Positions 1 through 56,503 are shown, counted from the stretch's first letter. The stretch: DNA of 57,713 bases from a virus (IMGVR_UViG_3300023184_003134:1-57713); one strand, 5' to 3'. The notes: a model not told the origin generated them from the letters alone. Numbers and translations: made by a program.

Positions 1-619
1 TATATAAATCTTGATACAACTCCGGCCACCATTTCCAAAATGCTTCTACATATGGATTATATTCACTTTGAGGAATTGGTATTCTACCACTACTTACAAA
101 ATGTTCTAATCCATTAAAATTATCGGAAGTTGGATATCCCCCATGTTGTTCAATTTCTTCCATCCATTTTGTTGAGAATGGTGGTGCACAATACGAACAT
201 TTAAAATTACACGCATTACTGAATGAAACCTCTACATACGAAGGATTAATGTTATCTCTCCAATTACTTTCTTTAATTTTTTCTAAATGTGGAAATGCCC
301 ATGGTTCAGATGATTTAAATGTTCTATCACTAAATTGATTTGAACTATCCTCTACACCCCAACAATAATCACATTCTGCTGGCTTCCCACCTTCTAGCAT
401 TTCTCTTCTTTTTTGTTTTTTGAAACGTGTATTATGAAGTGCGGAAGGGTCTCTATTTAATTCAGTTGTTGATATTTGATGTGTCATTGGATGGTGACAA
501 CTATGATTATGTCCAATATGTAAATGCATCGTTACTTGCATCCATTTTGCTAAACAAAATCCTACTCCCACTGCATTTAATTGTTCTCTTACATTTTCAA
601 ATTTTTCGTAACTAGCCAT
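1..619 (-). CDS. Radical SAM protein with N-terminal twitch/SPASM-like region (truncated by window edge)
   Basis: Not in the ORF track; translated by hand from ATG at 619 (TAATG overlap with the upstream stop): MASYEKFENVREQLNAVGVGFCLAKW...HSCHH...ECDYCW...NACNFKCSYC (CxxxCxxC). Confidence 0.9.
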   Translation of the reverse strand, partial: MASYEKFENVREQLNAVGVGFCLAKWMQVTMHLHIGHNHSCHHPMTHQISTTELNRDPSALHNTRFKKQKRREMLEGGKPAECDYCWGVEDSSNQFSDRTFKSSEPWAFPHLEKIKESNWRDNINPSYVEVSFSNACNFKCSYCAPPFSTKWMEEIEQHGGYPTSDNFNGLEHFVSSGRIPIPQSEYNPYVEAFWKWWPELYQDLY

Positions 620-2061
620 TATGCTTTACAATTTATTATTACAGAATTATTACCTATTTCATCTATTGATATGAGTTCGTATTCTAAACTATTCATACCA
701 TCGTTTTTCCAATTATATTTACCTTGCTGCATTTCTAATATATATCTTCTTTCGTTTCTTGCAGTAGTTTCACCCTTTGCCCATTTATCTACTCCGGCAA
801 TTGTTATTAGGCCTTCGGTTTGGTGTGGTAAACATTCAAACTTACCGTCTCTACGAAATGGTAAGATAGTATTATGAACTTTTAAAATATCTTCTTCTTT
901 TATTTCAACATCATTTATTTCACCATGGTTTCCATTATCACTTAAATCATTTAATACGTTTCCATTTATTGAATTAAAATCATAATGTGCAACCATATCA
1001 TCCGGAAATTCCATTATTTCATTTTCCGATAAACATCTGTCCCACATCATAACTTTTGCAATATCACCTTTAAACCATCTATTAACTTCATCTACTCCTA
1101 CCGATGGTGTTGTTCCAATATAATATGGTTCTGTTCCATATCTTTTTAAATAACCACTATATTCTAATGGTGATGTTGCACCTGTTCCAAATCTTGCATC
1201 ACTTTTTCTGCCATTGATGTGAAGTGAAATTAATTTATTATCATCATCAACTGTCAACGTTACCCAACTCCATTGTTGTTCGTATCTCTTTGCCCATAAG
1301 TATAAAAACTCTCTTTCATTATTCCATAACATAGAAGTAAATGCTCTACTATTGTTGTACGATATACCCCAATCATGTCCTGGTCTACGAAGAATTGGAT
1401 ATTCACAAAATCTTCTATCCTCATCACCAATTAAATAAATAGGAACTTTCTCCTCTTGTTGATGTGCTCTTACTAATATTGAAACCGTATGTGAACGCGA
1501 ACATAAATTTCTAATTGAACGAGATGGTTCTATTTTAACATATGATTTTAATCCATCAAAATATCCATACTTTTGGTTTACTATATCTGGTAAATAATGT
1601 TGTTCTGCATTACCTGTTAATACACATCTCCAAAATAGGTCATCATCTTCCATACCCCAATCCCAATAATCATTTGAGTAACCATTTGTAGCTTCTACTT
1701 GTTCTTTTGTGAATAGTACTGCACCACCAAAATACTCCTCATATTTGAGGTTATAATCTGTTTGAGATATTCTTACAGCTAAGTGCTTAGGGTTCTCAGG
1801 ATTGAAGCTATAATCACAAGAACTATCTTCTGGTACCATATCTATATCGTGCCATACAATATAATCACACCCGTCATCAAATGCGTGCTTAGCGGCGATG
1901 TTTTTCATCTTACCTCTATTAAATAACTTATCATCACATTGGTGAGCAAAATATATTTTATGTTCAATACCTTGTTCAGTTAAAAACTTATGAACTCTTG
2001 GTGCAAATTCTGCTAAATGTGCTTCTCTATTTCTATATGGTACACAAACTCCTAACTTCAT
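619..2061 (-). CDS. GT7 (beta-1,4-galactosyltransferase-like) glycosyltransferase with inserted LamG-like domain
   Basis: VPYRNR, FNRG, HDID, YFGG, NGYSNDYWDWGMEDDD and C-terminal PH...DGMNSLEY; the insert has LamG hallmarks (WVTLT..D, LHING, YIG, FKGDI, WDRCLS..EI). Confidence 0.85.
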   Translation of the reverse strand: MKLGVCVPYRNREAHLAEFAPRVHKFLTEQGIEHKIYFAHQCDDKLFNRGKMKNIAAKHAFDDGCDYIVWHDIDMVPEDSSCDYSFNPENPKHLAVRISQTDYNLKYEEYFGGAVLFTKEQVEATNGYSNDYWDWGMEDDDLFWRCVLTGNAEQHYLPDIVNQKYGYFDGLKSYVKIEPSRSIRNLCSRSHTVSILVRAHQQEEKVPIYLIGDEDRRFCEYPILRRPGHDWGISYNNSRAFTSMLWNNEREFLYLWAKRYEQQWSWVTLTVDDDNKLISLHINGRKSDARFGTGATSPLEYSGYLKRYGTEPYYIGTTPSVGVDEVNRWFKGDIAKVMMWDRCLSENEIMEFPDDMVAHYDFNSINGNVLNDLSDNGNHGEINDVEIKEEDILKVHNTILPFRRDGKFECLPHQTEGLITIAGVDKWAKGETTARNERRYILEMQQGKYNWKNDGMNSLEYELISIDEIGNNSVIINCKA

Positions 2062-3470
2062 AGTTTAACTGAAATTTTAATTGCCTTATCTGAAAGTTTA
2101 TTACTTTCTATTTCTTTGTAAATACAGGTGTTTAATCCATCTATTGATAAATCTACTATATTACCTTTCATTTCGTTATAAAATCTTTCTTGATTTTTTC
2201 TTGTTTCTGAATGTATCCAATTATTACCAATTGTTGAATTAGAACTATGCTTTAATGTTTTAAATTTTCCTTCTCGTCTGATTGGAACTATAATTTCTGT
2301 TTCAAATTTATCTACTAATATGTTATCTTCACAATTGTAAATAAATCCATTATTTTTATTACCACTTAAATCTTGTATAATATCACCTTTAAAATTTTTA
2401 AAATCATAATAACATTTTAAGTATTTTGATTTATCATATTTTCTATAATCATTAATTATAGATTTGTATAATGAATTTTCATATACTTCTTTTATGTTAT
2501 CGAATTCTAATGCAATATTCCAAATAGCAAACTCAGCAATTAATCCTTTAAAATAAAATTGTTTAATATCTAATGTTGGATTACCTACTCCAATATAAAA
2601 ATAATCATTATCATATTCATATATTTGGTCTTTTAGTTCTTTGGTATCAATTAATTCACCATTCATATAAAAAGAAAATGTATCATCTTCTTTTGTAATT
2701 ACTAAATGTGACCACACTTCACCAATGATATCACTTTGAATAGATGTTGAAATATCATCTTTAGTCCAAATCTCACCTTTGTATCGTTTGAATGATGTGT
2801 ATGATATACCTGTGTTTCTACCTGGTATTGATGTAATCTGATATTCATCGAACTCTTCTTTTAATGAGGTCTTACTATCTTCCGGTTTTACTTTGATTGA
2901 TATTGTAAAATCACCATTAAAAATAGATGATAAATTTTTGTAAGGAATTTTAATATAAGATTGTTTACCATCAAATTTAAAATAATTTATTAAATAGTTT
3001 TTATCAGGTATACCAACTGATATTTTATCTAATGGTATATTTCTCTGAATACATCTATATAATAAATCGTCATCTTCAAATCCCCAACCCCAATACTCAT
3101 TCGAATAGCCATTTACTAATTTATAATCATGTACATTAAATAAAGTAACTCCACCAAAATAATCGATGAATGGTATATCTTTATTAATTTTAGATACTAA
3201 ATGAATTGGTGTATCAGGATAAGAATAATCTACTCCCTTTAAAGGTAACATATCTACATCATGTAATGCAAAATAATCAAAACCTTCTTTAATTGCAATC
3301 CTAGCTCCTACATTTAAAAGTTTACCTCTATTAAAAGGCTTATCATCACTCTGTTCTATGACAAAGATTTTGTAATCGTAATCCTTTAAATACTCTTGCA
3401 TATAAGGAACGAATACTTCTAAATGAGATGTTCTATCTCTATATGGAACTATTATTGCTAATTTTTTCAT
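2058..3470 (-). CDS. GT7 glycosyltransferase with inserted LamG-like domain (paralog 2)
   Basis: VPYRDR, FNRGKLLN, HDVD, WGWGFEDDD, DGLN; insert with WSHLVIT, FYMNG, YIG, FKGLI. Confidence 0.85.
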   Translation of the reverse strand: MKKLAIIVPYRDRTSHLEVFVPYMQEYLKDYDYKIFVIEQSDDKPFNRGKLLNVGARIAIKEGFDYFALHDVDMLPLKGVDYSYPDTPIHLVSKINKDIPFIDYFGGVTLFNVHDYKLVNGYSNEYWGWGFEDDDLLYRCIQRNIPLDKISVGIPDKNYLINYFKFDGKQSYIKIPYKNLSSIFNGDFTISIKVKPEDSKTSLKEEFDEYQITSIPGRNTGISYTSFKRYKGEIWTKDDISTSIQSDIIGEVWSHLVITKEDDTFSFYMNGELIDTKELKDQIYEYDNDYFYIGVGNPTLDIKQFYFKGLIAEFAIWNIALEFDNIKEVYENSLYKSIINDYRKYDKSKYLKCYYDFKNFKGDIIQDLSGNKNNGFIYNCEDNILVDKFETEIIVPIRREGKFKTLKHSSNSTIGNNWIHSETRKNQERFYNEMKGNIVDLSIDGLNTCIYKEIESNKLSDKAIKISVKL

Positions 3471-3691
3471 TAAGCTTCTCTTTCGGACTCTTTATCTGGT
3501 CTTGTTGATGTTCCAACTGCTTTGGTTTTAGCAATATTGTAAAACTCATTTAAATACCATTCTAATCTTGTAGACCATCCTTTGGTATCTAAATCGTATA
3601 ACCAATCACTAATGTCTTGTGCTGAGTGTGCGATACTTTCTAATGCTTTTACACCTCTTTCTTCGGTTGTTAGTTCTTTTTTTTCTGCCAT
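3470..3691 (-). CDS. Hypothetical protein
   Basis: 73-aa ATG ORF translationally coupled to its neighbour. Confidence 0.7.
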   Translation of the reverse strand: MAEKKELTTEERGVKALESIAHSAQDISDWLYDLDTKGWSTRLEWYLNEFYNIAKTKAVGTSTRPDKESEREA

Positions 3692-3703
3692 TTTATTTTG
3701 TTT

Positions 3704-4099
3704 TTATTTTAAGAATTTTTTTACTGTTTCAAATGCAATTGCTTCGTGTCCTTCTTTCCACACTTTCCATTCTGGAGTTGTTATATGTGTTTCTATTTCT
3801 AATAATCTTGCATCAACTTCACCTAGTCTTGTATATAATTGTTCTAATCCTTTACCAACATTTTCTCTTTCTTGTTGTAAAGAAACTTTTTCATCTTTTG
3901 TATCTAAAAAATTTATTGCGTAATCAAATGTATTAGAACCATTAAAATGATACATTTTTAATAATGCTTCTATATTAATAATAAGTTTAGGTAAGAAAAA
4001 AGAAAAATCTCCTTTACTTTCTTTCATTACTTCTAATTCTTCAGCAATTGCTTCTAATTGTTTTACAACTAATTCGTTGTTTAATAATTGTTTTATCAT
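3704..4099 (-). CDS. Hypothetical helical protein
   Basis: 131-aa ORF with 4-bp overlap to the upstream gene. Confidence 0.7.
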   Translation of the reverse strand: MIKQLLNNELVVKQLEAIAEELEVMKESKGDFSFFLPKLIINIEALLKMYHFNGSNTFDYAINFLDTKDEKVSLQQERENVGKGLEQLYTRLGEVDARLLEIETHITTPEWKVWKEGHEAIAFETVKKFLK

Positions 4100-5577
4100 A
4101 AAATTATTTTATACCATTCTGTATTTTTATCAAAGGTTTCTTGTTTAATTAATTTAAATTTTAAATTATTTAATCCTATTTTAGTAGTAGAAAATTTTTC
4201 AGTTAATATATCATTAAAAAATATTAACCCATTCTCAATAATATCAGGATCAAATGATTTAAATCTATTAACAATATCCGTATCATTATCGTGCGGTAGT
4301 GATTGAAAATTTGCTTCAATTCTCTTTGGTAGTTTTATTTTAGATGTTTTTATTATTTCATCCTTTAAAAGATATTCTGAATAATTACTACCATGTGTAT
4401 TATACAATGTGGCGTGGTTGTGATGTTTACTACCATCCATTACAAAGTTTTTATAAAAATTATTAAATTGATATTTTAATGTTGGTTCAAATTGTGTTTG
4501 TAATTTCCTATTATTAATCAATCCATTTAAATACAAATTTTTGATTTCCGAATCACTTAATGTATAATCAAATATATAAAGATTAGCTAGTTTACCTCTA
4601 AACATATTTTTACCATGTGAACCACATCCAATATAAATTTTATCTTTGGTATAATCCCACAATGGTAATTCAAATTGTGTTAGTGTATCTATTTTTTTAT
4701 TTTCTTCAAATGTATCTACAAATAATCTTAATTTATTTGAATCAAAATCAACATTACATATAATATGATGCCATTGATTTGGTTTTAATTTTCTATAATT
4801 AAAATAATATTTATTATCCTTTCCCCAAAAATTAAATCTTAATGTGTTATCCGGTTGAATTGAAATACCACTATTGAATCCAGGAAATGAAATTACATAT
4901 TGCTCCTCTTTAACAAAATCATCAAAGTTAATCCAAGCCGATATTGTAAATGAATCTGTTGTAATTCCTTTTAAGAATTTATTTGGTAATATTTCCATTT
5001 GAGTTTCACCATCAAATTTTAAATACGATACTTTTTCTTTTTTGATTGAATCGGTAATTCTTAATCTATCTATTTCGTATTCGGTATCTACTCTTGGGTA
5101 AATATATTCTGAATCTAATTTAACACCGGCTTTCTCCATTCTAAATAATAAATCTAAATCTGCATATCCCCATCCATAATATTCATTAGAATAACCATTA
5201 ACTTTTTCAAAATCTTCTTTTGAAATTATTAATACTCCACCTAAATATTGTAAATAAGGTAAAGTATTTTCATGCACTTGTACTCGAGTTGCTAAATGGG
5301 TAGGATGTTCTTTGTAAGAATAATCTGCTTTATCTGATGCTGGTAACATATCTACATCGTGGAAACAAAAATAATCATATTCATCTTTTAGTAAGTGAAA
5401 TGCAGAATTACATAACTTACCATAATTAAACGGTTTATTATCGGATTGTTCAATTACAAATATTTTATAATCAATATCTTTACCTTTTAAAAACGATTGT
5501 ATGTGTGGCAAGAAAATATCGAGATGTTCTCTCCTATCTCTATATGGAACTACAATAGCTAATTTATGATTACTCAT
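4096..5577 (-). CDS. GT7 glycosyltransferase with inserted LamG-like domain (paralog 3, variant active-site loop)
   Basis: VPYRDR, FNYG, HDVD, YGWGYADLD, IGLNN; insert with FTISAWI, QWHHI, FRGKL. Start moved to ATG 5577 (MSNHKL) by comparison with paralogs. Confidence 0.85.
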   Translation of the reverse strand: MSNHKLAIVVPYRDRREHLDIFLPHIQSFLKGKDIDYKIFVIEQSDNKPFNYGKLCNSAFHLLKDEYDYFCFHDVDMLPASDKADYSYKEHPTHLATRVQVHENTLPYLQYLGGVLIISKEDFEKVNGYSNEYYGWGYADLDLLFRMEKAGVKLDSEYIYPRVDTEYEIDRLRITDSIKKEKVSYLKFDGETQMEILPNKFLKGITTDSFTISAWINFDDFVKEEQYVISFPGFNSGISIQPDNTLRFNFWGKDNKYYFNYRKLKPNQWHHIICNVDFDSNKLRLFVDTFEENKKIDTLTQFELPLWDYTKDKIYIGCGSHGKNMFRGKLANLYIFDYTLSDSEIKNLYLNGLINNRKLQTQFEPTLKYQFNNFYKNFVMDGSKHHNHATLYNTHGSNYSEYLLKDEIIKTSKIKLPKRIEANFQSLPHDNDTDIVNRFKSFDPDIIENGLIFFNDILTEKFSTTKIGLNNLKFKLIKQETFDKNTEWYKIIL

Positions 5578-5580
5578 ATC

Positions 5581-5612
5581 TAAATGTAACAAATTTTATT
5601 TATATAACCAAA
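5581..5612 (-). promoter_or_regulatory. Possible Bacteroidota-type promoter (variant -7 box)
   Basis: Minus strand reads TTTG-N20-TACATTTA just before ATG 5577. Confidence 0.4.
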
Positions 5613-14079: not shown

Positions 14080-14721
14080 TTATTTATTATTATATATAAA
14101 TGAAGTTAAAATAGCGAATCGTTTAAAGTTATCATCTAAAACTTCGGTTACTTCATGCATTGGATTTGCTGTTGTAAAATCTAATACTGCTAATGTACCA
14201 AACTCTGGTTTAATTACTATATTACCATTTATAACTAATTCGCCACCATATCCATCTTTATAATCTTCGTTTAAATAAAGTAAAATATTACATATCTTAT
14301 AAGGACTTAATCCGTCTTGATGTTTATTAATATAACATTGTTTATTATACATTGTATATGTTAAATGACAAGAATCTAAATTATATAATTCAGACGGATA
14401 ACATTGTTTAAGTAAATCTCTAAAAATTTCATCGTTTAAATATTCTATATCATAAACGGATAAATATTTATTTAAATTTTGTTCTGCGTACCAAAATTGC
14501 CATTTCTTTAATGGTGCATATTCTTTTTTTAATTCTTCTAATATTTCAAAATCAGTGTCATGTGTATATCCCGTTTCTCCACATGTAGTATGTGTTGCAT
14601 CTCTAAATTCTATATCTTTTATTTTACTAAAAATTTGTTTTAGTTTTTCAGTTATAGTAGGATTTATTGTTGTTGTATAATATCCTTTACTTGTTAATTG
14701 ATTGTGTATTTTTTCATTCAT
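14080..14721 (-). CDS. 2OG-Fe(II) oxygenase (prolyl hydroxylase-like)
   Basis: KHQD, YLN...GGEL, HEV, R. Confidence 0.85.
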   Translation of the reverse strand: MNEKIHNQLTSKGYYTTTINPTITEKLKQIFSKIKDIEFRDATHTTCGETGYTHDTDFEILEELKKEYAPLKKWQFWYAEQNLNKYLSVYDIEYLNDEIFRDLLKQCYPSELYNLDSCHLTYTMYNKQCYINKHQDGLSPYKICNILLYLNEDYKDGYGGELVINGNIVIKPEFGTLAVLDFTTANPMHEVTEVLDDNFKRFAILTSFIYNNK

Positions 14722-39850: not shown

Positions 39851-40174
39851 TTATAATGCAAATGATTCACCACACCCACACGTACGGGATGCGTTAGGAT
39901 TGATAAACTGAAAACCTTTACCATTCAATCCATCGGAAAAATCTAATTCAGTTCCATAAAGATATAGTAATGATTTCATATCTATTAGTATTTGTACTCC
40001 TTTATCTTCTGCTAAGGTATCACCTGTTTGTTGTTCGGTATCAAATGAAAGGTCATAGGATAATCCACTACATCCACCACCTTTAACCGCTACTCTAACA
40101 AAGGGAGTTTTGAACCCACTTTCTTCAATAAGTGAATTTAGTTTTTTTGCTGCACCTTCTGATATTGTTACCAT
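39851..40174 (-). CDS. iscA: A-type Fe-S carrier (IscA/HesB family)
   Basis: GGGCSGLSY, NPNASRTCGCGESF. Confidence 0.93.
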   Translation of the reverse strand: MVTISEGAAKKLNSLIEESGFKTPFVRVAVKGGGCSGLSYDLSFDTEQQTGDTLAEDKGVQILIDMKSLLYLYGTELDFSDGLNGKGFQFINPNASRTCGCGESFAL

Positions 40175-40185
40175 ACTAATAAATA

Positions 40186-40842
40186 TTATAATTTTTCAAA
40201 GTACCCACCAACCTCAAATTTAGCTTTCATGTTAATTGAACCTGCTTCGTTTGGTATAAATTTTGATGGTTCTACTAATCGGAAATCAACCGATACTCTG
40301 GTTTCATTACTATTGTTGTTTTTATTACCATGTAATAAATTGGCACCACTAAATACTAAGATTTCACCATAATTTACTTTATATGGTCTATAATCTCCTT
40401 TATCCTCAATAGATTCCATCCATATAGTATTTTGTTCGTTGGTATTTACAAATGGCATCCAAAAATTTACTTCCGATGTTCCATGATTGTAAGTGCTATC
40501 TTTATGCCATTCACCAACTCCTAAATTACCTTCCGCTAATTGAACTCTAAATGTTGGTATAATTTGATAAATAATTTCATTATATCCAAATCTTTCTTTA
40601 AGTTCTTTTACTAATTTTAAGTAAGTAGGTAGGAATTGTTCTTTATATTTTTCATAGTATCTTTTATGCCAAATAGTAGATTGGTCTTTTTCTCTAACCA
40701 ATAAATCATAATGTTCCAATTTATGTAAATCTTCCAATGGAATAGTATCACCATCCCATACTTCTAACATTTCTAAAACTATTTTTCTAAAATCGTATTC
40801 TTTAGTATCGTAACTAATTTTGTAAGGTGTTTGTAAATACAT
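40186..40842 (-). CDS. 2OG-Fe(II)-type dioxygenase (StrG-like)
   Basis: PTFRV, WHKD, NFWMP, LLHG, RVSVDFR. Confidence 0.7.
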   Translation of the reverse strand: MYLQTPYKISYDTKEYDFRKIVLEMLEVWDGDTIPLEDLHKLEHYDLLVREKDQSTIWHKRYYEKYKEQFLPTYLKLVKELKERFGYNEIIYQIIPTFRVQLAEGNLGVGEWHKDSTYNHGTSEVNFWMPFVNTNEQNTIWMESIEDKGDYRPYKVNYGEILVFSGANLLHGNKNNNSNETRVSVDFRLVEPSKFIPNEAGSINMKAKFEVGGYFEKL

Positions 40843-42024: not shown

Positions 42025-42333
42025 TTAATTGTATTTTAATCCGAAAAATTCGTAGTTTTTATGAACCGATACTTCATCATCGGCACTAATTGCAATATCT
42101 TCATCTTCATATATTGCAGAAACGGGACACTCAGGTACACATGCTCCACAATTAATACATAAATCTGGATTGATATACATTTGACCACCAGGAAATGCTT
42201 CTCTACCATCTCTTTCAATTTCACCACCCGAACCTTCCATATCAATAGGTCCGTGAATACAATCTACCGGACATGCACTTGCACATGCGGTATCCATACA
42301 ATCAACACAACTTTTTCCAATAATAAAGCTCAT
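42025..42333 (-). CDS. 7Fe-type (FdxA-like) ferredoxin
   Basis: CVDCMDTACASACPVDC and CINCGACVPECP; start at MSFIIG. Confidence 0.9.
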   Translation of the reverse strand: MSFIIGKSCVDCMDTACASACPVDCIHGPIDMEGSGGEIERDGREAFPGGQMYINPDLCINCGACVPECPVSAIYEDEDIAISADDEVSVHKNYEFFGLKYN

Positions 42334-42349
42334 AATTTGTTTTTTGTTT

Positions 42350-42760
42350 TTATATATGTGATTCATCAAAGATTAATTGTTCTAATCCTTGCTTTTGTCT
42401 ATAATCGTTTATTGCAGATTTAATAGCATCTTCTGCTAATACTGAACAATGTATTTTAACAGGAGGTAGGTTTAATTCCTCTACCAACTCCATATTATCT
42501 AATTTAACCGCTTCTTCCAATGTCATACCCTTTAACCACTCTGTTGCTAAGGATGATGCTGCTATTGCACTTCCACAACCAAATGTTTTGAATTTTGCAT
42601 CAATAATTCTATTATCTTCAACTTCTATTTGTAATCTCATTACATCACCACATTCCGGGGCGCCTACTAGACCTGTACCTACATTGGATTTACTTTTATC
42701 TAATGTACCTACGTTTTTTGGGTTTTGGTAATGGTCAATTACCTTTTCTGAATATGCCAT
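42350..42760 (-). CDS. iscU: Fe-S scaffold protein IscU
   Basis: GAPECGD, FKTFGCGSAIA, LPPVKIHCS. Confidence 0.96.
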   Translation of the reverse strand: MAYSEKVIDHYQNPKNVGTLDKSKSNVGTGLVGAPECGDVMRLQIEVEDNRIIDAKFKTFGCGSAIAASSLATEWLKGMTLEEAVKLDNMELVEELNLPPVKIHCSVLAEDAIKSAINDYRQKQGLEQLIFDESHI

Positions 42761-45829: not shown

Positions 45830-46219
45830 TTATCCAACTTTAATGGATAGTTTCTTTGGCTTTCTTTCCTCAAACTTTGGAATAGATATATAAAGAACGC
45901 CGTTTGTAATTGTGGCTTCCGCCTTTGCACCATCCCAATCTTTACCAATGCTTAGTGTTTCATCAATGTTCTGCACTAATTCACTTTCAATTTTAGAAGG
46001 AGTATTATCGTTTACTTTAGATTTAACTCTAATCTTATCAGAGTCATAATCCAATGTTAATGTTTCTACTGAATGACCTGGAACTAATAATCCAATTTGT
46101 AATGTGTCATCCGTAATGTCAATTGCTAATCTTTGTGCTGTTTCTTTGTAACGTCTTGTTGCTGGTTTAGAAACTTCAAAGAAATCTTCAAATAATTTGT
46201 TGTAATCTACTAAATACAT
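45830..46219 (-). CDS. Small heat-shock protein (Hsp20/alpha-crystallin)
   Basis: VPG, ATITNGVLYISIPK, C-terminal L-x-I. Confidence 0.85.
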   Translation of the reverse strand: MYLVDYNKLFEDFFEVSKPATRRYKETAQRLAIDITDDTLQIGLLVPGHSVETLTLDYDSDKIRVKSKVNDNTPSKIESELVQNIDETLSIGKDWDGAKAEATITNGVLYISIPKFEERKPKKLSIKVG

Positions 46220-48578: not shown

Positions 48579-48602
48579 ATCTTAGAGTTTAATGTTTATA
48601 CT

Positions 48603-48633
48603 TAAAGATACGAAATTATTAGGACTTTTCCAA
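48603..48633 (-). promoter_or_regulatory. Possible Bacteroidota-type promoter (variant)
   Basis: TTG-N20-TATCTTTA; the same TTTCGTATCTTTAAG core occurs at 45805-45819. Confidence 0.5.
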
Positions 48634-49413
48634 TTATTTTAGAATATTTGTTGTAATTAATTGATTATTAACAAGATATGTATATAATTTTTTTGAATAT
48701 TTTTTATTATGTATGTATCCTGGATGTGCTCCATCAACTCCATTATCAACAAATGGTGCTGAATAATCTCCATCAAATCTATTATTATCATTATAATCAT
48801 TAGTTGCATACCATCCATTCCAAACCCAATTACATTTTTTTGATTCTAAAAATAATTTTATTAACGTATGGTTTTTATACCAATTTATAAAATTGTTTGA
48901 TTTATTTAATAAAGTAAGATGTGCATTATGTTCATTTACACCATTTTCGGTTTCTTTAAAATACCCCCAACTTTTATGGTGGAATGGTTCTATACCACCT
49001 TCATTGGTATAAAATTCTCGTCTATGTGATTCGGTATACATAATTAAAACTAAATCAGGTTTTACTAAATCGTAATATGTCATCAAACAACGGGTGATAT
49101 AATCATTACTTCTACCACCACATCCGAAATTTAAATCAACTCCATTTGGTATTAATTTACACAATTGATGTGACCATGTTTCGTTATCATTTACACCAAC
49201 TCCCTCAGTAATAGAACAACCTAATGACATTACCTTAAACCCTTCTTTTTTTATACTAGCTCCTCTAAACCCCAATTCATTATAAGTGTAAGTGCAATTT
49301 CCTGTAATATCTGAACCCGAACCTTTATATGTTTGATTAACTCTTTCACTTAAATTGTTTCTAAACGATGAAATTTCAAATCCCGCAGGATTCCAATATT
49401 CTAATGCCTTCAT
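48634..49413 (-). CDS. SGNH/GDSL-like esterase or acyltransferase
   Basis: NELGFR, SLGCSITEG, NFGCGG, DGAHPG. Confidence 0.75.
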   Translation of the reverse strand: MKALEYWNPAGFEISSFRNNLSERVNQTYKGSGSDITGNCTYTYNELGFRGASIKKEGFKVMSLGCSITEGVGVNDNETWSHQLCKLIPNGVDLNFGCGGRSNDYITRCLMTYYDLVKPDLVLIMYTESHRREFYTNEGGIEPFHHKSWGYFKETENGVNEHNAHLTLLNKSNNFINWYKNHTLIKLFLESKKCNWVWNGWYATNDYNDNNRFDGDYSAPFVDNGVDGAHPGYIHNKKYSKKLYTYLVNNQLITTNILK

Positions 49414-49913
49414 ATTAATTTATTTCTTTCTATTTTTATATGTTCGTTTTCTAAAAACCATAATAAAGAATACCTTTCACCTTCTAAAATTGGTGTTATT
49501 TCGTGGTCTATTCTTACATCAAATAAATATGTATTCCCAATAACTTTATCTAATATAATTTCATTTGGGTTGTATAATTTAAAATCACCTCCTATAAAAT
49601 TATCGTTTAATAATACACCAATTGCGTATAATCTTTCATCTCTAACATCATTATGCTTACCAAACCAATTACCTTTTGCAAATTTATGAAAATGTATTTC
49701 TTCTTTATTTTTTATAATTTGTAAACCAGTTTCGGATTCAAAAAAATATTTTAATTTATCAAATAACCATTTATTTTGTAATGAATAATCAATTGGTTGG
49801 GAATGGTATTTTCTATTTTCCATATTAAAGTTTGCAATATTTTCATTTGCATTCCATACAATAGATTCACATTCTACTTTATTAAATAATACTCTTTGGC
49901 TTAATAATTTCAT
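49410..49913 (-). CDS. 2OG-Fe(II) oxygenase (P4H-like)
   Basis: KHND, GGDF, HEITP..EGERYSL. Confidence 0.88.
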   Translation of the reverse strand: MKLLSQRVLFNKVECESIVWNANENIANFNMENRKYHSQPIDYSLQNKWLFDKLKYFFESETGLQIIKNKEEIHFHKFAKGNWFGKHNDVRDERLYAIGVLLNDNFIGGDFKLYNPNEIILDKVIGNTYLFDVRIDHEITPILEGERYSLLWFLENEHIKIERNKLI

Positions 49914-50439
49914 TACTTAAGTTTTGTTTTTCAACAAATAACATTAATGTTATTCTATTTCCTTTGGTTATCATATCAACTGAATGTGGTGATGACGATT
50001 CAAAAATATAAACTTTTCCAGTTTCAAAATTTATTATAGTTTCATTATTACTACTATATATTTTAAAATCACCACCTATAAAATCTTCTTTTGAATTTAA
50101 TTGAACTCCAATTGTATATATTCTTTCTGCACCATTTTTTATGTGGTCATCATGTTTTATAAAATAATCACCTTCTTTGTAATTTCTATATGCTGTAAAT
50201 ATATTATTGTTAATTATTTTTTTAATATTTGGTATGCCATTTACCCAATTGACTATTCTTTCCGCAAACCATATATTTTCATTGTTCCAAATTAAAGTAT
50301 TTGATAACATTTTACCTCCTATTTTAGTTTCTTTAGTATTATAATCAACAGATATTTCTCTATTGTGCCATTGATTTGCGTATGATATAATTTTATCACA
50401 TTCTTCTTTTGTGAATAAAATTTCTTCTTTTAATAACAT
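49882..50439 (-). CDS. 2OG-Fe(II) oxygenase (P4H-like)
   Basis: KHDD, GGDF, HSV...GNRITL. Confidence 0.88.
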   Translation of the reverse strand: MLLKEEILFTKEECDKIISYANQWHNREISVDYNTKETKIGGKMLSNTLIWNNENIWFAERIVNWVNGIPNIKKIINNNIFTAYRNYKEGDYFIKHDDHIKNGAERIYTIGVQLNSKEDFIGGDFKIYSSNNETIINFETGKVYIFESSSPHSVDMITKGNRITLMLFVEKQNLSNEIIKPKSII

Positions 50440-50444
50440 TTTTT

Positions 50445-50561
50445 CTAAATTAATTTATTAACTTTCGTATTAACCCTATATTTTTGCCCAACGGGAAAGT
50501 TTTTATTTTCTAAATCAGTTATGTCCAAATAATCTAATATTTTTTGAAATTCATTAATCAT
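50445..50561 (-). pseudogene. 38-aa ORF, probable 3' remnant of a sulfotransferase-like gene
   Basis: Hand-translated MINEFQKILDYLDITDLENKNFPVGQKYRVNTKVNKLI; fills the gap and carries the cluster C-terminal tag. Confidence 0.45.
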
Positions 50562-50562
50562 A

Positions 50563-51147
50563 TTATATTAATTTTTTTTCGTTTGTTATTGGGTTATTTT
50601 GTCTTTGTTTATGTTTTGGGTGTAAAATTTCATAATCCAAAGAAATTGATTTATCAATTAAACCCGTACCATAGTATATGTTTTCGTAGGTGTCAATTGG
50701 GACATTTAATAAATTTGATAATTTAATCATATATTCGTTTACCATTTTAATTTTAATCTCCAACTTGTCGGCAAGATTATCATATAAGTGATTGTGGTAA
50801 AGATATTTAGCTCTTTCATCCATTCCCGAATTTTGTACCGATAATGATTCTGCATTTTCTTTTGTGTTTTCTCTTATGATTAATATAACTTTATCAAATT
50901 GTTTACTAAAATCTACATAAAAATCAACACAATTTTGCAAATGCTCTTCTGTAACCGTTTCAGTTTTGAATTTATCGTCAATTTGACTTAATTGAGTTTT
51001 AAACACTATATTTTCAATTTCAAACTCAGTTATTCCCCTTCTAAATGGTTCATATATATAAGAAAGATTATTAGCAGCTGCTATCGATTTCATCAATGAA
51101 CTTGTTCCAGACCTTGGTATTCCAATTATTAAAAAATTATTTTTCAT
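50563..51147 (-). CDS. Sulfotransferase-like protein (P-loop, PAPS-binding)
   Basis: GIPRSGTSSL (5'-PSB), YEPF, R.N......S (3'-PB), TYENIY. ATG start at MKNNF. Confidence 0.8.
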   Translation of the reverse strand: MKNNFLIIGIPRSGTSSLMKSIAAANNLSYIYEPFRRGITEFEIENIVFKTQLSQIDDKFKTETVTEEHLQNCVDFYVDFSKQFDKVILIIRENTKENAESLSVQNSGMDERAKYLYHNHLYDNLADKLEIKIKMVNEYMIKLSNLLNVPIDTYENIYYGTGLIDKSISLDYEILHPKHKQRQNNPITNEKKLI

Positions 51148-51183
51148 AGTTTTTAAAATTAAGTGTGGTATATCCACATTTGT

Positions 51184-51750
51184 TTATATTAATGTTTTTT
51201 TAAAGTTTTCTATTGGTGTCAACCTAAACCAATTAACCAATGAATATCGTGTTCCTGTTGTTATGGGTTTTACTCTATGTGTTAAATGTGAATAAAATAT
51301 AAATAAATTACCCAATCCTTTTTCTAAAGTTATTTCATTATTATCTTTGTCTTTTATTTGTAATTCTCCACCGGTATACTCATCATTTAATTGTATTACC
51401 ATTGAGCAATACCTTTTAGAAAAAACTTCGTCCTCATTCCCACTATCCTCATGCCAATTATAATAACCGTCTTTTGTATATTCTGTAAATTGAAACATAT
51501 TATTTGTAAAATCAATAACGTATCCTTTCACATTCACCTCTTTTTTAAAAATATTAATTAATTTTTCATTTAAATTTGGAAAATTTAAACTATAATCATA
51601 GAAAAAAACATTTGATTTTCTACTTTTTAAATCCAACATGTTAGGTCCACCCACCCCTGCTGGCTTTAATTCTTTAGTTAATGAAAATTGTAATAAATCT
51701 TCACATTCTTTTTTTGATAGAAGATTTGGTATAGTAGTATAGTTTATCAT
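51184..51750 (-). CDS. 2OG-Fe(II) oxygenase (P4H/PKHD-like)
   Basis: RKS, YNWHED, YTGGEL, HRVKP...GTRYSLVNW. Confidence 0.92.
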   Translation of the reverse strand: MINYTTIPNLLSKKECEDLLQFSLTKELKPAGVGGPNMLDLKSRKSNVFFYDYSLNFPNLNEKLINIFKKEVNVKGYVIDFTNNMFQFTEYTKDGYYNWHEDSGNEDEVFSKRYCSMVIQLNDEYTGGELQIKDKDNNEITLEKGLGNLFIFYSHLTHRVKPITTGTRYSLVNWFRLTPIENFKKTLI

Positions 51751-51759
51751 TTATTAAAA

Positions 51760-52287
51760 TTATATTAAAGATTTTTTATTTATTGAAATTTCTTTCCAAT
51801 GTAAAAATAATTGAATAACAGATTCGTTGTCGGCACATATTAATTCATCTCTCCAATGTGTAATTTTATCCGAATTTATTATAAGTACACCATCTCCAAT
51901 ATTTGGTGTGTGTGAAATTTCAATATTGTTATATTCGGCATTAAGTGACCATCCTTGTTTAATGTTTGAAAATAAACAAATGCTTAATGTAATACCAATA
52001 TCGTCCCTATCTACGTGTTTTTTTAAAACTGAACCATTTTTATATTCTCTAACAAATGAATTAACATTTTTAATTTCTTTATTATGATTTAACTCAGTAA
52101 TAATTGGTTTTATAGTATTTAATAATTTATCAAATTCACCATAACCTCTGAAACCATACGTTGTTTTATAATTAAGTAATGTATCATATTTATCCGAATT
52201 TATTTTTATTTTTTGTAGTCTACGAAAATCAGAAACTAACAGTTCACAATCTTCAGCTGAAACTAAATTATTTAATAAATGTATCAT
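51760..52287 (-). CDS. 2OG-Fe(II) oxygenase (phage type)
   Basis: REY..GSVLKKHVDR, GDGV, HWRDEL, QLFLHW. Confidence 0.82.
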   Translation of the reverse strand: MIHLLNNLVSAEDCELLVSDFRRLQKIKINSDKYDTLLNYKTTYGFRGYGEFDKLLNTIKPIITELNHNKEIKNVNSFVREYKNGSVLKKHVDRDDIGITLSICLFSNIKQGWSLNAEYNNIEISHTPNIGDGVLIINSDKITHWRDELICADNESVIQLFLHWKEISINKKSLI

Positions 52288-52985
52288 ATGATATTATTTG
52301 ATTTGATAAATCTTTTTTCGAATAATTCCCAATACCAGTTCCTTAATTCATCATCTATTATAATTTTATTTTCTTGTTTTACGAAATTATTATGTAACAT
52401 ATTATTTGGATTTATATTTGATATGAGTATGTTTTCTTTATATTTTTTATAAAAAAATTCTTCAACTTTATATAATTCATTAATACTAAATTCATATGTA
52501 CATTTTTCATTGTTTTTCCAAAATTGTTGTGAAATCATTAAATTGGATATTAAACCAAAATTTGGCGCTGTTTTAGGTGCACCTTTATAATCTTTTACGA
52601 TTATAAAATTATTTTTTTCTGTTGTTTCATAATAATGCATATTATTTACAAATGTTTTATCAAATGTTTTATACAAAAAATTATTATCAATATCTTTCCA
52701 ATTTATAATTGGTGTATATCCATCTTTATCGATTGATAACCAAATTGTTTGTAATGAACTAATCCATCGTTCCAATGGGTCTCTGGTTATACAAATTGTT
52801 TCTTTTTTTCCAAAATATTCATACAATTCATCAAGTTTAATATGTAAATGATTATATGGGTCTTTGTAATACTGCCTATGTTTTTCAATTTTTAAATTAG
52901 AATTTAATAATGCGTTTTCTATTGAACTACTTGCACATTTTGGAACCGATACCCATATCAAATCATTATTAATCAATAATCCCAT
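52284..52985 (-). CDS. Sulfotransferase family 2-like protein
   Basis: SVPKCASSSI and RDPLERWIS. Confidence 0.85.
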   Translation of the reverse strand: MGLLINNDLIWVSVPKCASSSIENALLNSNLKIEKHRQYYKDPYNHLHIKLDELYEYFGKKETICITRDPLERWISSLQTIWLSIDKDGYTPIINWKDIDNNFLYKTFDKTFVNNMHYYETTEKNNFIIVKDYKGAPKTAPNFGLISNLMISQQFWKNNEKCTYEFSINELYKVEEFFYKKYKENILISNINPNNMLHNNFVKQENKIIIDDELRNWYWELFEKRFIKSNNII

Positions 52986-53482
52986 TATAATAAACTTTTA
53001 TTTGTTTTTTGTTTTTTTTGTAAAAATGTATATAAACTAAATCTAACTCCGGATATCATAGGTTCAACTTTATGTAATGTTTTACTATGAATTTTAACAC
53101 TTAATCCTGTTTTTGGTGTTATTGAAAATTCTAAATCATTATCGTAATGAATTAATTTTCCACCTTCAAAATTTTCATTTAAATATGTAACAAAACTTAA
53201 ATCACCACTATCTTTATGTTTACTATTGTGTATCTGTCTATCTGGTTTTATTATGTTTATAGCAGTTTCAATTAATTCATATTCACCATTAGATGTTATT
53301 ATTTTATAGTATTCTTTTAATTTGTTGTCATCTACAAATATAGAATCAAACCACAAATTTTCTCCTAAATTATTTTTTTGATTATAGGTTGTACGCCACT
53401 TCCATTTTGTTTCGTCGTATATTAAATTGTTAATATACTTCAATTCTTCCTGTGTCAATAGATTTTGTAATATTTCTACCAT
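52985..53482 (-). CDS. 2OG-Fe(II) oxygenase (P4H-like)
   Basis: KHKD, YLNENFEGG, HKVEP...GVRFSL. Confidence 0.88.
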   Translation of the reverse strand: MVEILQNLLTQEELKYINNLIYDETKWKWRTTYNQKNNLGENLWFDSIFVDDNKLKEYYKIITSNGEYELIETAINIIKPDRQIHNSKHKDSGDLSFVTYLNENFEGGKLIHYDNDLEFSITPKTGLSVKIHSKTLHKVEPMISGVRFSLYTFLQKKQKTNKSLL

Positions 53483-54525
53483 TATATTAAAGTTTTATTA
53501 GTATTATCAATAAATTCATATAAGTTATGAAAAACATTTTGGTTTTTCCATATTTTATTAAAATTTATTTTAAACAATTCATGTTCCGGATGTTCCGTAT
53601 CCCATACTTGTTTTAATTTAAACTCCCCTTCTGAAAACGTCCCCCAATTAGTTATTTTACCAAAAAATACATTTACTCGTTTACCAAAAATGGAATACAT
53701 TAAATTATAAAACATTTCCATTTCGGTATAATTCGTATCTTGTACCACAAACGATGTTTTTATTGATGTTAATGTTTGTATTGTATTAATAAATTTTAAA
53801 TTACTTAGTAAATTTTCCCAATTACCACCTAATCTTGTTTTATTTTCATACGTATACTTTGTCCCCGCGTCAATACTTATTTCACAAGTGTGAACATATT
53901 TATGTACGTTTGGCATACTATTCCACATTTCTTTATTCCACATACTTGCGTTTGTGTGTAGGTGTATATTTTGTAATTTGGGATATTTTTCAGGGTTAAA
54001 GTTTCTTAAATAATTTCTAAAGCTAACCGAAACAAATGGGTCACCTGTACCCGTAATATATAAAGTTTTTACATTTTGTGAATAATATGTGTCAATTTCG
54101 TCTATTGTTTTTTCAATACGTTTTAATCCTTCACTACTTTCAACAATTAAATCTACTCTACAAGATGGACATTTGTAATTGCAAGTTCTATCAAAATTCA
54201 TTACCAAATAGTCAGGTGTATTATTATCTATAATTGGAGTTGTGTAGTGTGAATTTATTTTTAAATGTATTGGGCCTGATGGAATCCCATAGTTTACCAA
54301 TTTACTTAAATAGGGACAAAGTTCTTTATCACAATATTTAAATGAACCATCTATTATAGAATTTCTAATATCAATAATTGGTGCACTATTGTATATGTCC
54401 TTTAAAGGAATTTCACCAATCTCTATTTTATTGGGTAACCAAGATGGACAACAAACAAAACAAACATTATTATGTATTTCCAATGAATTAAATGGAACAC
54501 CACATATGTAATTTTTTAAATTCAT
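53482..54525 (-). CDS. Radical SAM protein with N-terminal SPASM/twitch-like Cys cluster
   Basis: ICGVPF...CFVCC...YCDKELCP; CNYKCPSC; GTGDP; HTNA; ISIDA. Confidence 0.9.
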   Translation of the reverse strand: MNLKNYICGVPFNSLEIHNNVCFVCCPSWLPNKIEIGEIPLKDIYNSAPIIDIRNSIIDGSFKYCDKELCPYLSKLVNYGIPSGPIHLKINSHYTTPIIDNNTPDYLVMNFDRTCNYKCPSCRVDLIVESSEGLKRIEKTIDEIDTYYSQNVKTLYITGTGDPFVSVSFRNYLRNFNPEKYPKLQNIHLHTNASMWNKEMWNSMPNVHKYVHTCEISIDAGTKYTYENKTRLGGNWENLLSNLKFINTIQTLTSIKTSFVVQDTNYTEMEMFYNLMYSIFGKRVNVFFGKITNWGTFSEGEFKLKQVWDTEHPEHELFKINFNKIWKNQNVFHNLYEFIDNTNKTLI

Positions 54526-54540
54526 AGTGTGTTATGTTAA

Positions 54541-54828
54541 TTATAACAATGATTTAATAGATTTAGATTTAAAAGTTTGATATGTGGTATCAACCTCTTC
54601 CCATTTTTTCAATGGACAATCGTTAAAATCATTTGAAAATATCTTTTTAGATATAGGACAACCACATTCACCACATACTACCCCTAATTTTAATTTATTT
54701 GTTAATACTTTTCTAGACGGACAAGATTCACAAATTTCATTTCGTTTTTCTGCGAGTAATTTTTGTGATGGATTGGGGTTATGCGCAATAATCCAGGCAC
54801 TATAAATCTTTTTAAAATTTAAATCCAT
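54541..54828 (-). CDS. Small Cys-rich metal-binding protein
   Basis: R..ICESCP...CGECGCP...K......CPLKKW. Confidence 0.75.
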   Translation of the reverse strand: MDLNFKKIYSAWIIAHNPNPSQKLLAEKRNEICESCPSRKVLTNKLKLGVVCGECGCPISKKIFSNDFNDCPLKKWEEVDTTYQTFKSKSIKSLL

Positions 54829-54846
54829 ATAACTTATTTTTTATAA

Positions 54847-54924
54847 TTAAGAATTTGCGGCGATAATCAATGCTCCTATTTGTGTCATTGTAGTATCAAT
54901 TGTTTGTTTTTCTATTAATGTCAT
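54847..54924 (-). CDS. 25-aa small ORF
   Basis: Hand-translated MTLIEKQTIDTTMTQIGALIIAANS; fills the gap between two cluster genes with about 20-nt AT-rich spacers. Confidence 0.55.
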   Translation of the reverse strand: MTLIEKQTIDTTMTQIGALIIAANS

Positions 54925-54944
54925 TATATATTATTTTTTAACTT

Positions 54945-56477
54945 TTATTTAGGGGTATATGGAGTACAACCTGGTCTACAAATACAAAGGGGTCTACCTG
55001 CACAAGCTAAGGTAGTATTACCCGGCCCGTCACAATATAATCCTTTTGGACAGGTGGACTGTTCACATGGACCGGTGTTAGAACTACAACCCACGTTGTG
55101 TTCAATTGTTACAAATGATGTATTGTTGGATGTTTGTGTTAAGAACATATGTGCCCTTTCAACACTAATAACCCATCCATCAAATATTTGTTTTGTTGTT
55201 GTTATAGATGCAACTTCTTTAATTATTGGATTGAAATTACCATCCGTTGTGTCTAATAATATTATACTGTCACCAATTTGAATTGTATCTTCGTTGCCGG
55301 TTTCATGTGATAATGACACAAATTTAATGTTATCATTTCTCACAATTAAATAATTTGAAGTATTAGTATCTTCCCAAAAAGTATTATCGGTAAAATCAAT
55401 TCTAACATAATTAACAATTTGACTAACTTTTTGTTTATTAGTGACTGCGTTTGTTGAATATGTTGTACCAGTTAAAAATGTATTATATGATATACCAAAA
55501 TCAGCGATTTCCGATTCCATATCTACTTCATTTGGATTTGGAATGTCTATTGTTTTTATTATATCTCCAACTTGTAATTCTAATGCAGTTTTAAATGAAC
55601 CGTCCGCCATTTCTACTTTATCAGTATCTAACAATTTTGGCGCGACTAATGAGTATTCGTTGCTAATATATCTATTTTTAAATTCGGTATTCAATTCAAA
55701 TGTTATGGTATCATATGTTACATCACTATCTAATCTTCCAGTTGGTAAATATGTATAACCACCCAGAGAAATACTTTCTAAATTTGGAGGGAATAATAGA
55801 TTCATTCCTCTAAATATTTGAATATGGTCTTGATATAATTTATCTATATTCAAATGAAATTCCATTAGAAAATGACCATTGTCTATATTTGATAATATTG
55901 TATTTAATTCCGATTCATTTGATACTTTATAAAATTTAGGATAATTTGTTTTATCATATCCAGGATTAACCGCTTTTAAAATAAAGTTAGGATGAACACC
56001 ATTATCGTTTATAGATGTGATATGATTAACTAAATCACCATTACTATCTTTATATGCAAATTGTGAGGCAAATGTAGAATCTTTTATTAAATTTAAAAAA
56101 TTAACTTTATCTTTACAATATGTGTCATCCACCAATGCGGTAGTATCGTATGCACTTCTAATAATCAAAGTTTCATCGTTGTCCTCAACAAATGGAATTG
56201 TGATTGAAGATGCTCCGGTTTCGTGGTGTTCAAATGAAATGCCTAAAGTAGTGGTTAACGTTTTTAATTTTTTATTAAACTTTAAAACTGAGCCAATGTA
56301 CACTACTTTAGTAAAAGCTTTTTCAGTTATAAAATTAGAAAGTTCCGTAAAATCTAATGCTGTTTCATTATCTTCAACTGTTAGATTTACCCAACCTATA
56401 TTTGTGTTAAGTTCTATTGGTACTAAATTACCATCTTTATTGTATACGAAGTCCGACCCGATTAATACTGTTCTCAT
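54945..56477 (-). CDS. Circularly permuted ATP-grasp domain + Hint domain + C-terminal Cys-rich peptide
   Basis: GSDF....DG...IELNTN, FILKA, FLMEF (ATP-grasp); KVEMADGSFK...LQVGD, IQIGD, WVISVERAHMF, EHN (Hint); then 49 aa with 8 Cys. Confidence 0.8.
   Translation of the reverse strand: MRTVLIGSDFVYNKDGNLVPIELNTNIGWVNLTVEDNETALDFTELSNFITEKAFTKVVYIGSVLKFNKKLKTLTTTLGISFEHHETGASSITIPFVEDNDETLIIRSAYDTTALVDDTYCKDKVNFLNLIKDSTFASQFAYKDSNGDLVNHITSINDNGVHPNFILKAVNPGYDKTNYPKFYKVSNESELNTILSNIDNGHFLMEFHLNIDKLYQDHIQIFRGMNLLFPPNLESISLGGYTYLPTGRLDSDVTYDTITFELNTEFKNRYISNEYSLVAPKLLDTDKVEMADGSFKTALELQVGDIIKTIDIPNPNEVDMESEIADFGISYNTFLTGTTYSTNAVTNKQKVSQIVNYVRIDFTDNTFWEDTNTSNYLIVRNDNIKFVSLSHETGNEDTIQIGDSIILLDTTDGNFNPIIKEVASITTTKQIFDGWVISVERAHMFLTQTSNNTSFVTIEHNVGCSSNTGPCEQSTCPKGLYCDGPGNTTLACAGRPLCICRPGCTPYTPK
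55095..55637 (-). other. Hint (intein-like) domain, aa 281-461, predicted C-terminal cleavage only
   Basis: Block A position 1 is Lys, block B His is absent, block F His and terminal His-Asn are retained, and +1 is Val. Confidence 0.75.
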
Positions 56478-56494
56478 ATTATTTTGTTATTTCT

Positions 56495-56503
56495 TATAAA
56501 TAT
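56495..56503 (-). promoter_or_regulatory. Putative late promoter ATATTTATA heading the Hint/tailoring cluster
   Basis: Same motif and same 17-nt spacing as before the tail fibre gene. Confidence 0.6.

Follow-up and report, generated by a model that had tools for sequence, protein, structure and literature searches.

A C-terminal tag shared by unrelated enzymes of a phage gene cluster with an ATP-grasp-like/Hint protein: a candidate docking handle

Protein sets defined by a short terminal peptide are known for compartments, organelles, and proteases. Here, we describe a C-terminal motif, hereafter called the tag, that ends the products of unrelated genes in a cluster (positions 49410-54828) of the viral contig IMGVR_UViG_3300023184_003134, the whole of which (57,713 nucleotides) is referred to as the window. 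The tag ends in two Leu or Ile residues (strict form [LI][LI]-stop) and accompanies the gene of a neighboring protein, H, which joins ATP-grasp-like and Hint domains to a Cys-rich tail. We are confident that selection maintains the tag as a feature of the proteins and that it is tied to the H cassette. Its function as a pathway-specific C-terminal docking motif is, taken as a whole, a reading that we favor tentatively and that falls somewhat short of probable, and the narrower proposal of H as the reader is possible but should be regarded with more reserve.

The window is a 57.7-kb contig of 25-36% GC, in which the minus strand holds nearly all genes. A baseplate wedge protein, gp25, a carbamoyltransferase, and DNA methylases are encoded, pointing to a tailed phage; baseplate and tail genes are present without head genes. 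All ten minus-strand open reading frames (ORFs) of the cluster carry the strict ending. Elsewhere on this strand, it is found on 2/53 ORFs of at least 30 aa (Fisher p = 5e-10), and the composition of the proteins (L 8.5%, I 8.6%) predicts 2.9% per gene by chance. The only two tag-like endings outside the cluster are those of ORF 4096 (KIIL) and ORF 34728 (NYLI). All eleven C-termini that a preliminary description of the window had quoted, ten of them tagged and the last ending in TTNILK, were verified letter for letter (Table 1).

The same ending recurs in more than a hundred related viral contigs. With the radical S-adenosylmethionine (SAM) gene of the cluster as query, 20 IMG/VR loci were found at 73-83% identity, and runs of tagged genes occur in 20/20 of these; gene sets and gene orders differ between them, the ending is the same. 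A wider profile search with the radical SAM enzyme returned only genes of 59-86% identity, all 7/7 inspected loci were tagged and arranged in cassettes, and no untagged outgroup emerged from it. The metagenome protein collection contains 711 relatives of H and IMG/VR contains 248; in 80 further loci with 40-60% identity to H, the best 80 of these 248, the tag pattern recurs. Counted over the 56 loci with distinct H, the strict tag is found on 258/387 same-strand genes within the eight positions that follow H (+1 to +8), on 67/514 genes upstream of H, and on 13/164 genes at +12 or beyond. The preliminary description had proposed a docking tag that recruits enzymes to the capsid or to one scaffold, perhaps the ATP-grasp/Hint protein. 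Part of this proposal is supported, as the tag travels with the H gene across divergent phage contigs. Grouping by BLAST gave 64 families in which at least 50% of the members are tagged (26 of these have at least 3 unique members) and 314 families without any tagged member; the C-terminal logo shows the tag in the former and no signal in the latter. The idea that the tag marks interchangeable tailoring enzymes agrees with its presence on so many unrelated families.

In the family-weighted logo, K accounts for 30-38% at positions -7 and -6, K or N is preferred at -4, and position -3 (P-2) is occupied by K (30%), S (17%), N (13%), or T (12%). At -2, L is preferred over I, and at -1, I over L (I 74%, L 26% by the strict-tag definition). 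Relaxed forms have F, M, V, or Y as the final residue, and near-misses differ by a one-step change (final I to T) or by an extension of one residue (NILK, YLIK). Codon usage was counted in a set of 120 unique tagged genes, drawn from the window and the 20 related loci. At -2, the Leu codons (TTA 57, TTG 16, CTA 11, CTT 6) resemble the internal background of the same genes (65/14/8/9%), and for Ser at -3 both TCN and AGY codons are in use. Within the radical SAM family alone, Leu at -2 is encoded by TTA (28), TTG (8), CTT (4), CTG (1), and CTA (1), and Thr or Ser at -3 by five different codons; the P-loop sulfotransferase family uses CTT (15), TTA (12), CTA (3), and TTG (2) for the same Leu. 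Synonymous codons at the tag thus vary freely while the amino acids stay, and the constraint therefore acts on the protein.

These data bear directly on the view that the ending is a nucleotide-level signal (for translational coupling, as a promoter or terminator, or as a recombination site) or a mere A/T bias, with the peptide being irrelevant. The codons for K, N, I, and L are A/T-rich, the last Ile is encoded by ATA in excess, many stop codons overlap the next start, and two junctions (52982-53008 and 53479-53505, each comprising tag, stop, and overlapping ATG) have 27 nt in common at 85% identity. However, the other junctions of the window lack this stretch, no repeat family spanning the gene junctions of the window was found, and the DNA word TTAATAT[AG]A covers only 5/10 of the tags in the window. 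The tag is also kept however the next gene is spaced, with gaps from -4 nt to hundreds of nt, and untagged families of the same A/T-rich contigs do not have the ending. The preliminary description had named, as one finding that would refute it, an equal frequency of the pattern at coupled gene ends elsewhere, through an effect of A/T-rich DNA on translation initiation; among gene ends at most 10 nt from the next start, the ending occurs on 9/9 in the cluster and on 2/27 elsewhere. Together with the codon drift, this speaks for a protein-level feature, so that the nucleotide-level explanation is largely refuted and has only a very slight chance of being right.

The tag is present on 2-oxoglutarate (2OG) oxygenases of several Pfam types, radical SAM enzymes, Sulfotransfer_2-like proteins, and Stf0-like P-loop sulfotransferases, as well as on GDSL-like and SET-like proteins, a Zn-ribbon-like protein (usually at +1), and several unnamed families. 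H itself is untagged (0/63 unique), as is the product of the micro-ORF that follows it. Also untagged are the cofactor-supply genes of related operons, i.e., those for adenosine 5'-phosphosulfate (APS) kinase (PF01583, 0/24 unique), a cytidylyltransferase-like protein (PF01467, 0/30), and DUF2061 (0/21), and, in the window, those for IscU, IscA, and a ferredoxin. It is plausible that the tag divides proteins acting on a macromolecular substrate from suppliers of diffusible cofactors, such as 3'-phosphoadenosine 5'-phosphosulfate (PAPS) and Fe-S clusters. Outside such clusters, the 2OG oxygenase at 14080 of the window has no tag, and in cyanophage S-CAM9 the tag is found on 0/20 coding sequences around the dioxygenase genes, including four annotated 2OG oxygenases. 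The preliminary description had set two untagged 2OG enzymes outside the cluster against the tagged ones; this is correct for 14080-14721 (PF13640, E 6.6e-10), but the identity of 40186-40842 as such an enzyme could not be confirmed by Pfam, where it has no match at E <= 0.01.

For the radical SAM enzyme, an AlphaFold2 model (mean predicted local distance difference test, pLDDT, of 90) presents the last four residues, 344-347, as coil with pLDDT < 50, and the tag of this enzyme is accordingly predicted to be an exposed tail. An exposed, basic, and then non-polar C-terminus would also suit a degron for an AAA+ protease of the host or the phage, for example ClpXP, by which the lifetime of the enzymes would be timed. 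The C-terminal ClpX signal of MuA, RRKKAI, is of this kind (given in Table 1 of PMC8138137), and the enrichment of K at -4, -6, and -7 (30-38%) followed by L or I at -2 and -1 is consistent with it. A degron that times a whole pathway does not, however, obviously predict that neither H nor the genes supplying cofactors in these operons carry the tag, and no Clp-type gene is among the Pfam matches listed for the window (one of the scans listing 25 of its 34 families). The present tag also differs from a MuA-type signal in that it occurs on 5-12 enzymes per operon and is missing from their operon mates. We therefore regard the degron as an unlikely but serious alternative.

The AlphaFold2 model of H (pLDDT 87) is divided into an ATP-grasp-like region (~1-276), a Hint/bacterial intein-like (BIL) domain (~277-461), and a hypervariable Cys-rich tail (462-510). 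At the sequence level, H has no Pfam or PHROG match and no PDB sequence match; a PDB profile search gave only the ataxin AXH domain at E ~1 over the start of the Hint domain, and no precomputed Pfam domain is given for the 120 relatives listed of the 711. By structure, the Hint domain matches BIL2 (6y75, Foldseek E 7e-8; 6tmm, VIA-align Z 14.8, root-mean-square deviation 3.2, 152 residues aligned), and inteins follow at Z 12-14. In an alignment of 110 sequences, H460-N461 at the end of this domain are invariant. Residue 1 of inteins aligns to residue 281 of H, where K281/L282 are nearly invariant and never Cys, so that there is no N-terminal nucleophile. In intein chemistry, a C-terminal His-Asn (HN) without an N-terminal nucleophile leads to cleavage by Asn cyclization and not to splicing. 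With HN in place and the nucleophile missing, the Hint domain of H should therefore cut off the tail. The tails that follow HN are 25-50 residues long, Cys-rich, and different in sequence in 24/24 relatives examined, while C464, C471, C476, and C482 are invariant.

For the N-terminal domain (VIA-align over 1-276), the nearest folds are YgiC (Z 8.4, 203 residues aligned), GspS (8.2), and glutathione synthetase-like proteins (8.0-8.1), with TTLL, RimK, and LysX at a lower Z of 5.6-6.5, where any value under 8 can mean a common arrangement only; Foldseek points to yeast glutathione synthase (1m0t, E 1.4e-5). E22, N24, K168, and R223 are invariant in the 110-sequence alignment, and these may correspond to the E-x-N and Lys motifs of ATP-grasp enzymes. 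These folds raise the possibility that the alpha-carboxylate of the tag is the acyl substrate of the ATP-grasp domain and is ligated to an amine, for example to the N-terminus of the peptide released by the Hint domain. The nearest folds (glutathione synthetase and GspS/YgiC, followed at lower Z by TTLL, RimK, and LysX/ArgX) activate terminal carboxylates, a pointer from the Atlas to YheCD/TTL clusters (score 0.85, a lead only) goes in the same direction, and the tag is strictly C-terminal. Against this, the Z values are borderline, the extended forms NILK and YLIK persist in two lineages, and there is no evident reason for joining enzymes covalently to a peptide; we therefore consider it quite improbable. 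The same low standing applies to the related thought that H is a protein ligase for which the tag is both recognition site and acyl donor, in a ubiquitin-like labeling of an enzyme set by a phage.

The reading that we prefer is the docking handle. The motif consists of a Lys-rich stretch, [K/N], [K/S/T/N], L/I, and I/L-COOH, forms an exposed tail under protein selection, and would mark the cassette proteins that act on a macromolecular substrate, i.e., hydroxylases, sulfotransferases, the radical SAM enzyme, and the small Cys-rich protein. The tag would be the handle by which any enzyme carrying it is brought to one common receptor, most likely the constant ATP-grasp/Hint body of H, whose Hint domain would release the hypervariable Cys-rich tail after or during its modification. 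We rank the body of H first as the reader because, apart from the micro-ORF, it is the only untagged protein that always occurs with the tag, and because it carries the likely substrate, with the tag persisting where only the body persists. New enzymes could join such a pathway by gaining a tail of 4-8 residues, which would be cheap in an A/T-rich genome. A putative peptide product with heavy modification would be in keeping with the Cys-rich tail, the hydroxylases, and the sulfotransferases. A complex prediction of H 1-461 with ATP and Mg and the last 32 residues of the Zn-ribbon-like protein, run with alignments and without controls, gave a score of 0.01 (mark 0.32) and weighs neither way.

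Several points count against this reading. The loci are related, and the large counts are thus not independent events. About one third of the genes at +1 to +8 do not have the strict tag, and a 2OG oxygenase subfamily within the clusters, with the ending FWFH (15 copies), is untagged. All loci are A/T-rich (26-35% GC), so that the motif is seen in one base composition only. The last Ile is encoded by ATA in 147/235 tags before TAA and in 80/96 before TGA, against a background of 44.5%; ATGA start overlaps account for the excess before TGA but not for that before TAA. In loci represented by L009, H has no Cys-rich tail and the neighboring enzymes are still tagged, and the Cys-rich tail is therefore not a universal substrate. 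The ATP-grasp assignment of H, made on a model with Z ~8 and a Foldseek E of ~1e-5 and without a sequence-level match, is borderline. Finally, what the data show is the motif, the constraint on the protein, the confinement to the cassette, and the domains of H; docking, the receptor, and the substrate are inferred.

The L009-type protein (L009:1218-3956, also in L010 and L016) is a 912-aa variant of H with three tandem canonical mini-inteins after the first HN. Each of these runs from Cys to HN, they are separated by two-residue spacers (RF, KF), and the protein ends in HN-K, with no nucleophile at any +1 position; Pfam matches to Hint, Intein_splicing, and PT-HINT were obtained, and a Cys-rich tail is missing. 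Between H and the next gene, a micro-ORF of 24-30 aa was found in 53/55 of the unique-H loci examined, and it may encode a further substrate or an H subunit. In the window and in L022-L099, it is rich in Thr, Asn, and Ile and ends in ANS, VNS, or HTS; its place is taken by an ORF of 46-48 aa in L001-type loci and by one of 50 aa in L009-type loci.

Comparison with known systems helps to delimit the tag. In RiPP (ribosomally made and post-translationally modified peptide) pathways, a leader peptide is read by recognition elements on the enzymes. Common to these pathways and the present cluster are a hypervariable Cys-rich core beside a radical SAM enzyme, hydroxylases, and other tailoring enzymes, and a radical SAM fold that matches the maturases SuiB, SkfB, and CteB (and viperin). 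Unlike in these pathways, the polarity would be inverted under the docking reading, with the recognition module on the precursor and a 'leader' on each enzyme, the usual place of the leader being taken by the 460-aa ATP-grasp/Hint body of H, and release of the core from H is predicted to proceed by Asn cyclization and not by a separate protease. No leader-recognition (RRE) domain was matched in Pfam at E <= 0.01 on the tagged proteins scanned, although Pfam may miss divergent ones. H resembles intein-like and pretoxin-Hint domains in its Hint fold and in the His-Asn just before a variable C-terminal module, with BIL2 as its best match and PT-HINT matches on the 912-aa variant, but differs by the missing N-terminal Cys/Ser nucleophile, by a Cys-rich peptide of 25-50 residues in place of a toxin, and by the fusion to an ATP-grasp-like domain.

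Encapsulins select diverse cargo by a short common peptide, and their shell has the HK97 fold, as stated in PMC8346489 and PMC11866011; there, too, a short terminal peptide on unrelated enzymes defines a functional set. A corresponding function of the tag, namely loading into a compartment or procapsid, would likewise account for one terminal peptide on unrelated enzymes. However, the co-occurring gene is the ATP-grasp/Hint gene and not one for a shell protein, no shell-like gene is found within the cluster, the motif is different, and the enzymes require soluble co-substrates (2OG, PAPS, SAM); we regard loading as improbable. Tandem dioxygenase arrays in cyanophages (Syn9 gp49 region) were described by Iyer et al. 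(2010) and linked to sulfotransferases and ATP-grasp ligases in peptide modification (PMC2938197). These are phage operons with many unrelated 2OG dioxygenases as well, but the S-CAM9 representatives are untagged as described above, and the passages of PMC2938197 consulted do not mention a shared terminus. Class I PDZ ligands, to which the preliminary description had likened the tag, have a hydrophobic P0 with a free carboxylate in common with it, and endings such as KTLI and KSLL fit the pattern S/T-x-hydrophobic. The analogy fails in that P-1 is as conserved as P0 in the tag and P-2 is S or T in only ~29% of families, and no PDZ domain occurs among the Pfam matches listed for the window (with the same 25 of 34 families in one scan). 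We provisionally place the tag with the terminal peptides that define protein sets, outside the classes of PDZ ligands, encapsulin cargo, and ClpX degrons.

If the docking reading is true, a tag on the tailoring enzymes of one viral operon represents a new way to organize a biosynthetic pathway, with a plug-in rule by which an enzyme that gains ~5 residues joins the pathway. The inversion of RiPP logic, with a 'leader' on each enzyme and the reader on the precursor, would be new as well. The system as a whole (ATP-grasp-like and Hint domains, Cys-rich peptide, hydroxylases, sulfotransferases, radical SAM enzyme, and PAPS supply) may make heavily modified peptides during infection. It is without a published description in the literature searched: the searches retrieved no paper on the tag or the H family. 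The tag offers a sequence-only handle on the members of this widespread and unannotated phage system, H being absent from cultured phages, and one that would tell the enzymes acting on macromolecules from the suppliers of cofactors.

Table 1. Genes of the cluster in gene order, and other features of the window mentioned in the text. C-terminal residues are given as verified.
Product	Position	Strand	C-terminus	Remarks
H	54945..56477	-		510 aa; ATP-grasp-like, Hint/BIL, Cys-rich tail; untagged
Micro-ORF	54847..54924	-	ANS	25 aa; directly 3' of H; untagged
Cys-rich Zn-ribbon-like protein	54541..54828	-	SIKSLL	95 aa; tag codons 54544-54555; no Pfam match
Radical SAM enzyme	53482..54525	-	TNKTLI	PF04055, E 2e-5, 25.2 bits against a 29.5-bit cut-off
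2OG-Fe(II) oxygenase	52985..53482	-	TNKSLL	PF13640, E 5.5e-7
Sulfotransferase_2-like protein	52284..52985	-	KSNNII	PF03567, E 5.5e-5
175-aa protein	51760..52287	-	NKKSLI	No Pfam match
2OG-Fe(II) oxygenase	51184..51750	-	FKKTLI	PF13640, E 5.9e-17
P-loop sulfotransferase-like protein	50563..51177	-	NEKKLI	No Pfam match in this copy
38-aa ORF	50445..50561	-	KVNKLI	3' end left from a second P-loop sulfotransferase-like gene; no Pfam match
2OG-Fe(II) oxygenase	49882..50439	-	KPKSII	PF13640, E 6.7e-10
2OG-Fe(II) oxygenase-like protein	49410..49913	-	ERNKLI	PF13640, E 3.4e-5, 25.1 bits, below the 27-bit cut-off
259-aa protein	48634..49413	-	TTNILK	Tag plus one extra Lys; no Pfam match
Small heat-shock protein	45830..46219	-	IKV	PF00011
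IscU/NifU_N	42350..42760	-		PF01592, E 1e-50
Ferredoxin	42025..42369	-		Fer4
IscA-like protein	39851..40174	-		PF01521
Galactosyltransferase/lectin paralogues	619..5592	-		Three proteins of ~480 aa; one (4096..5592) ends KIIL

The degree to which the single families of the cluster keep the tag varies (Table 1 gives the window copies). It is present on 43/43 unique members of the radical SAM family, whose fold matches to viperin, SuiB, SkfB, and CteB have E values of 1e-9 to 1e-6, on 39/43 of the P-loop sulfotransferase-like family, and on 18/21 of the family of the 175-aa protein. The Sulfotransferase_2-like family has the strict form in 50/58 unique members and the relaxed form in all. Of the 51 unique members of the Zn-ribbon-like family, whose median position after H is +1, 35 carry the strict [LI][LI] ending, and most others end in LF, LY, LM, or similar; the family of the 259-aa protein has the strict tag in 29/45 unique members, with NILK and YLIK as one-residue extensions. 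The product of 49410 clusters with other 2OG oxygenases by BLAST, and a relative of the P-loop sulfotransferase-like gene at 50563 (L009:9038-9598) matches the Stf0 sulphotransferase family (PF09037, E 1.9e-5).

Ten separate tagged ORFs had been counted in the preliminary description; the ten endings stand, but one ORF is not independent. In tblastn, ORF 50445-50561 matches only the C-terminal ~36 residues of genes of 184-187 aa elsewhere (E down to 1e-10), and because it matches only the ends of longer genes, it represents what is left of the 3' part of such a gene and not an independent one. An ATG and the tag are retained; the remainder of the gene has thus been lost.

In many related loci, for example at L041:140-526, L074:8942-9379, and L040:9758-9973, genes for a cytidylyltransferase-like protein, APS kinase, and a DUF2061 membrane protein are found at -3 to -1 before H, and these likely supply PAPS to the sulfotransferases; the window ends ~1.2 kb beyond H, and any copies there would be outside it. 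The IscA-like protein, ferredoxin, and IscU of the window plausibly supply Fe-S clusters to the radical SAM enzyme.

Among GenBank phages, a blastn search with 48600-56500 gave no match, nor did tblastn with H and the radical SAM enzyme in 50,697 GenBank phage records; a generic 2OG oxygenase alone finds relatives in cyanophages and pelagiphages at ~30% identity. In 185,579 prokaryote genomes, H has a single match, on a 2,044-bp contig (L102) of a metagenome-assembled genome labeled Candidatus Diapherotrites. The H gene makes up almost the whole of this contig, which is probably phage DNA assigned to the wrong bin.

Two other candidate readers of the tag were dropped. The groove of small heat-shock proteins binds Ile-x-Ile tails. 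The hydrophobic residues of the tag are adjacent and not spaced in this way, and the small heat-shock protein of the window has I-K-V at its own C-terminus. A sliding clamp was also considered; no clamp gene is present in the window. In related loci, the small heat-shock protein family is kept about nine genes downstream of H. At the other end of the window, three paralogues combine galactosyltransferase family 7 and concanavalin-like lectin domains, and one of them has the tag-like ending KIIL outside the cluster.

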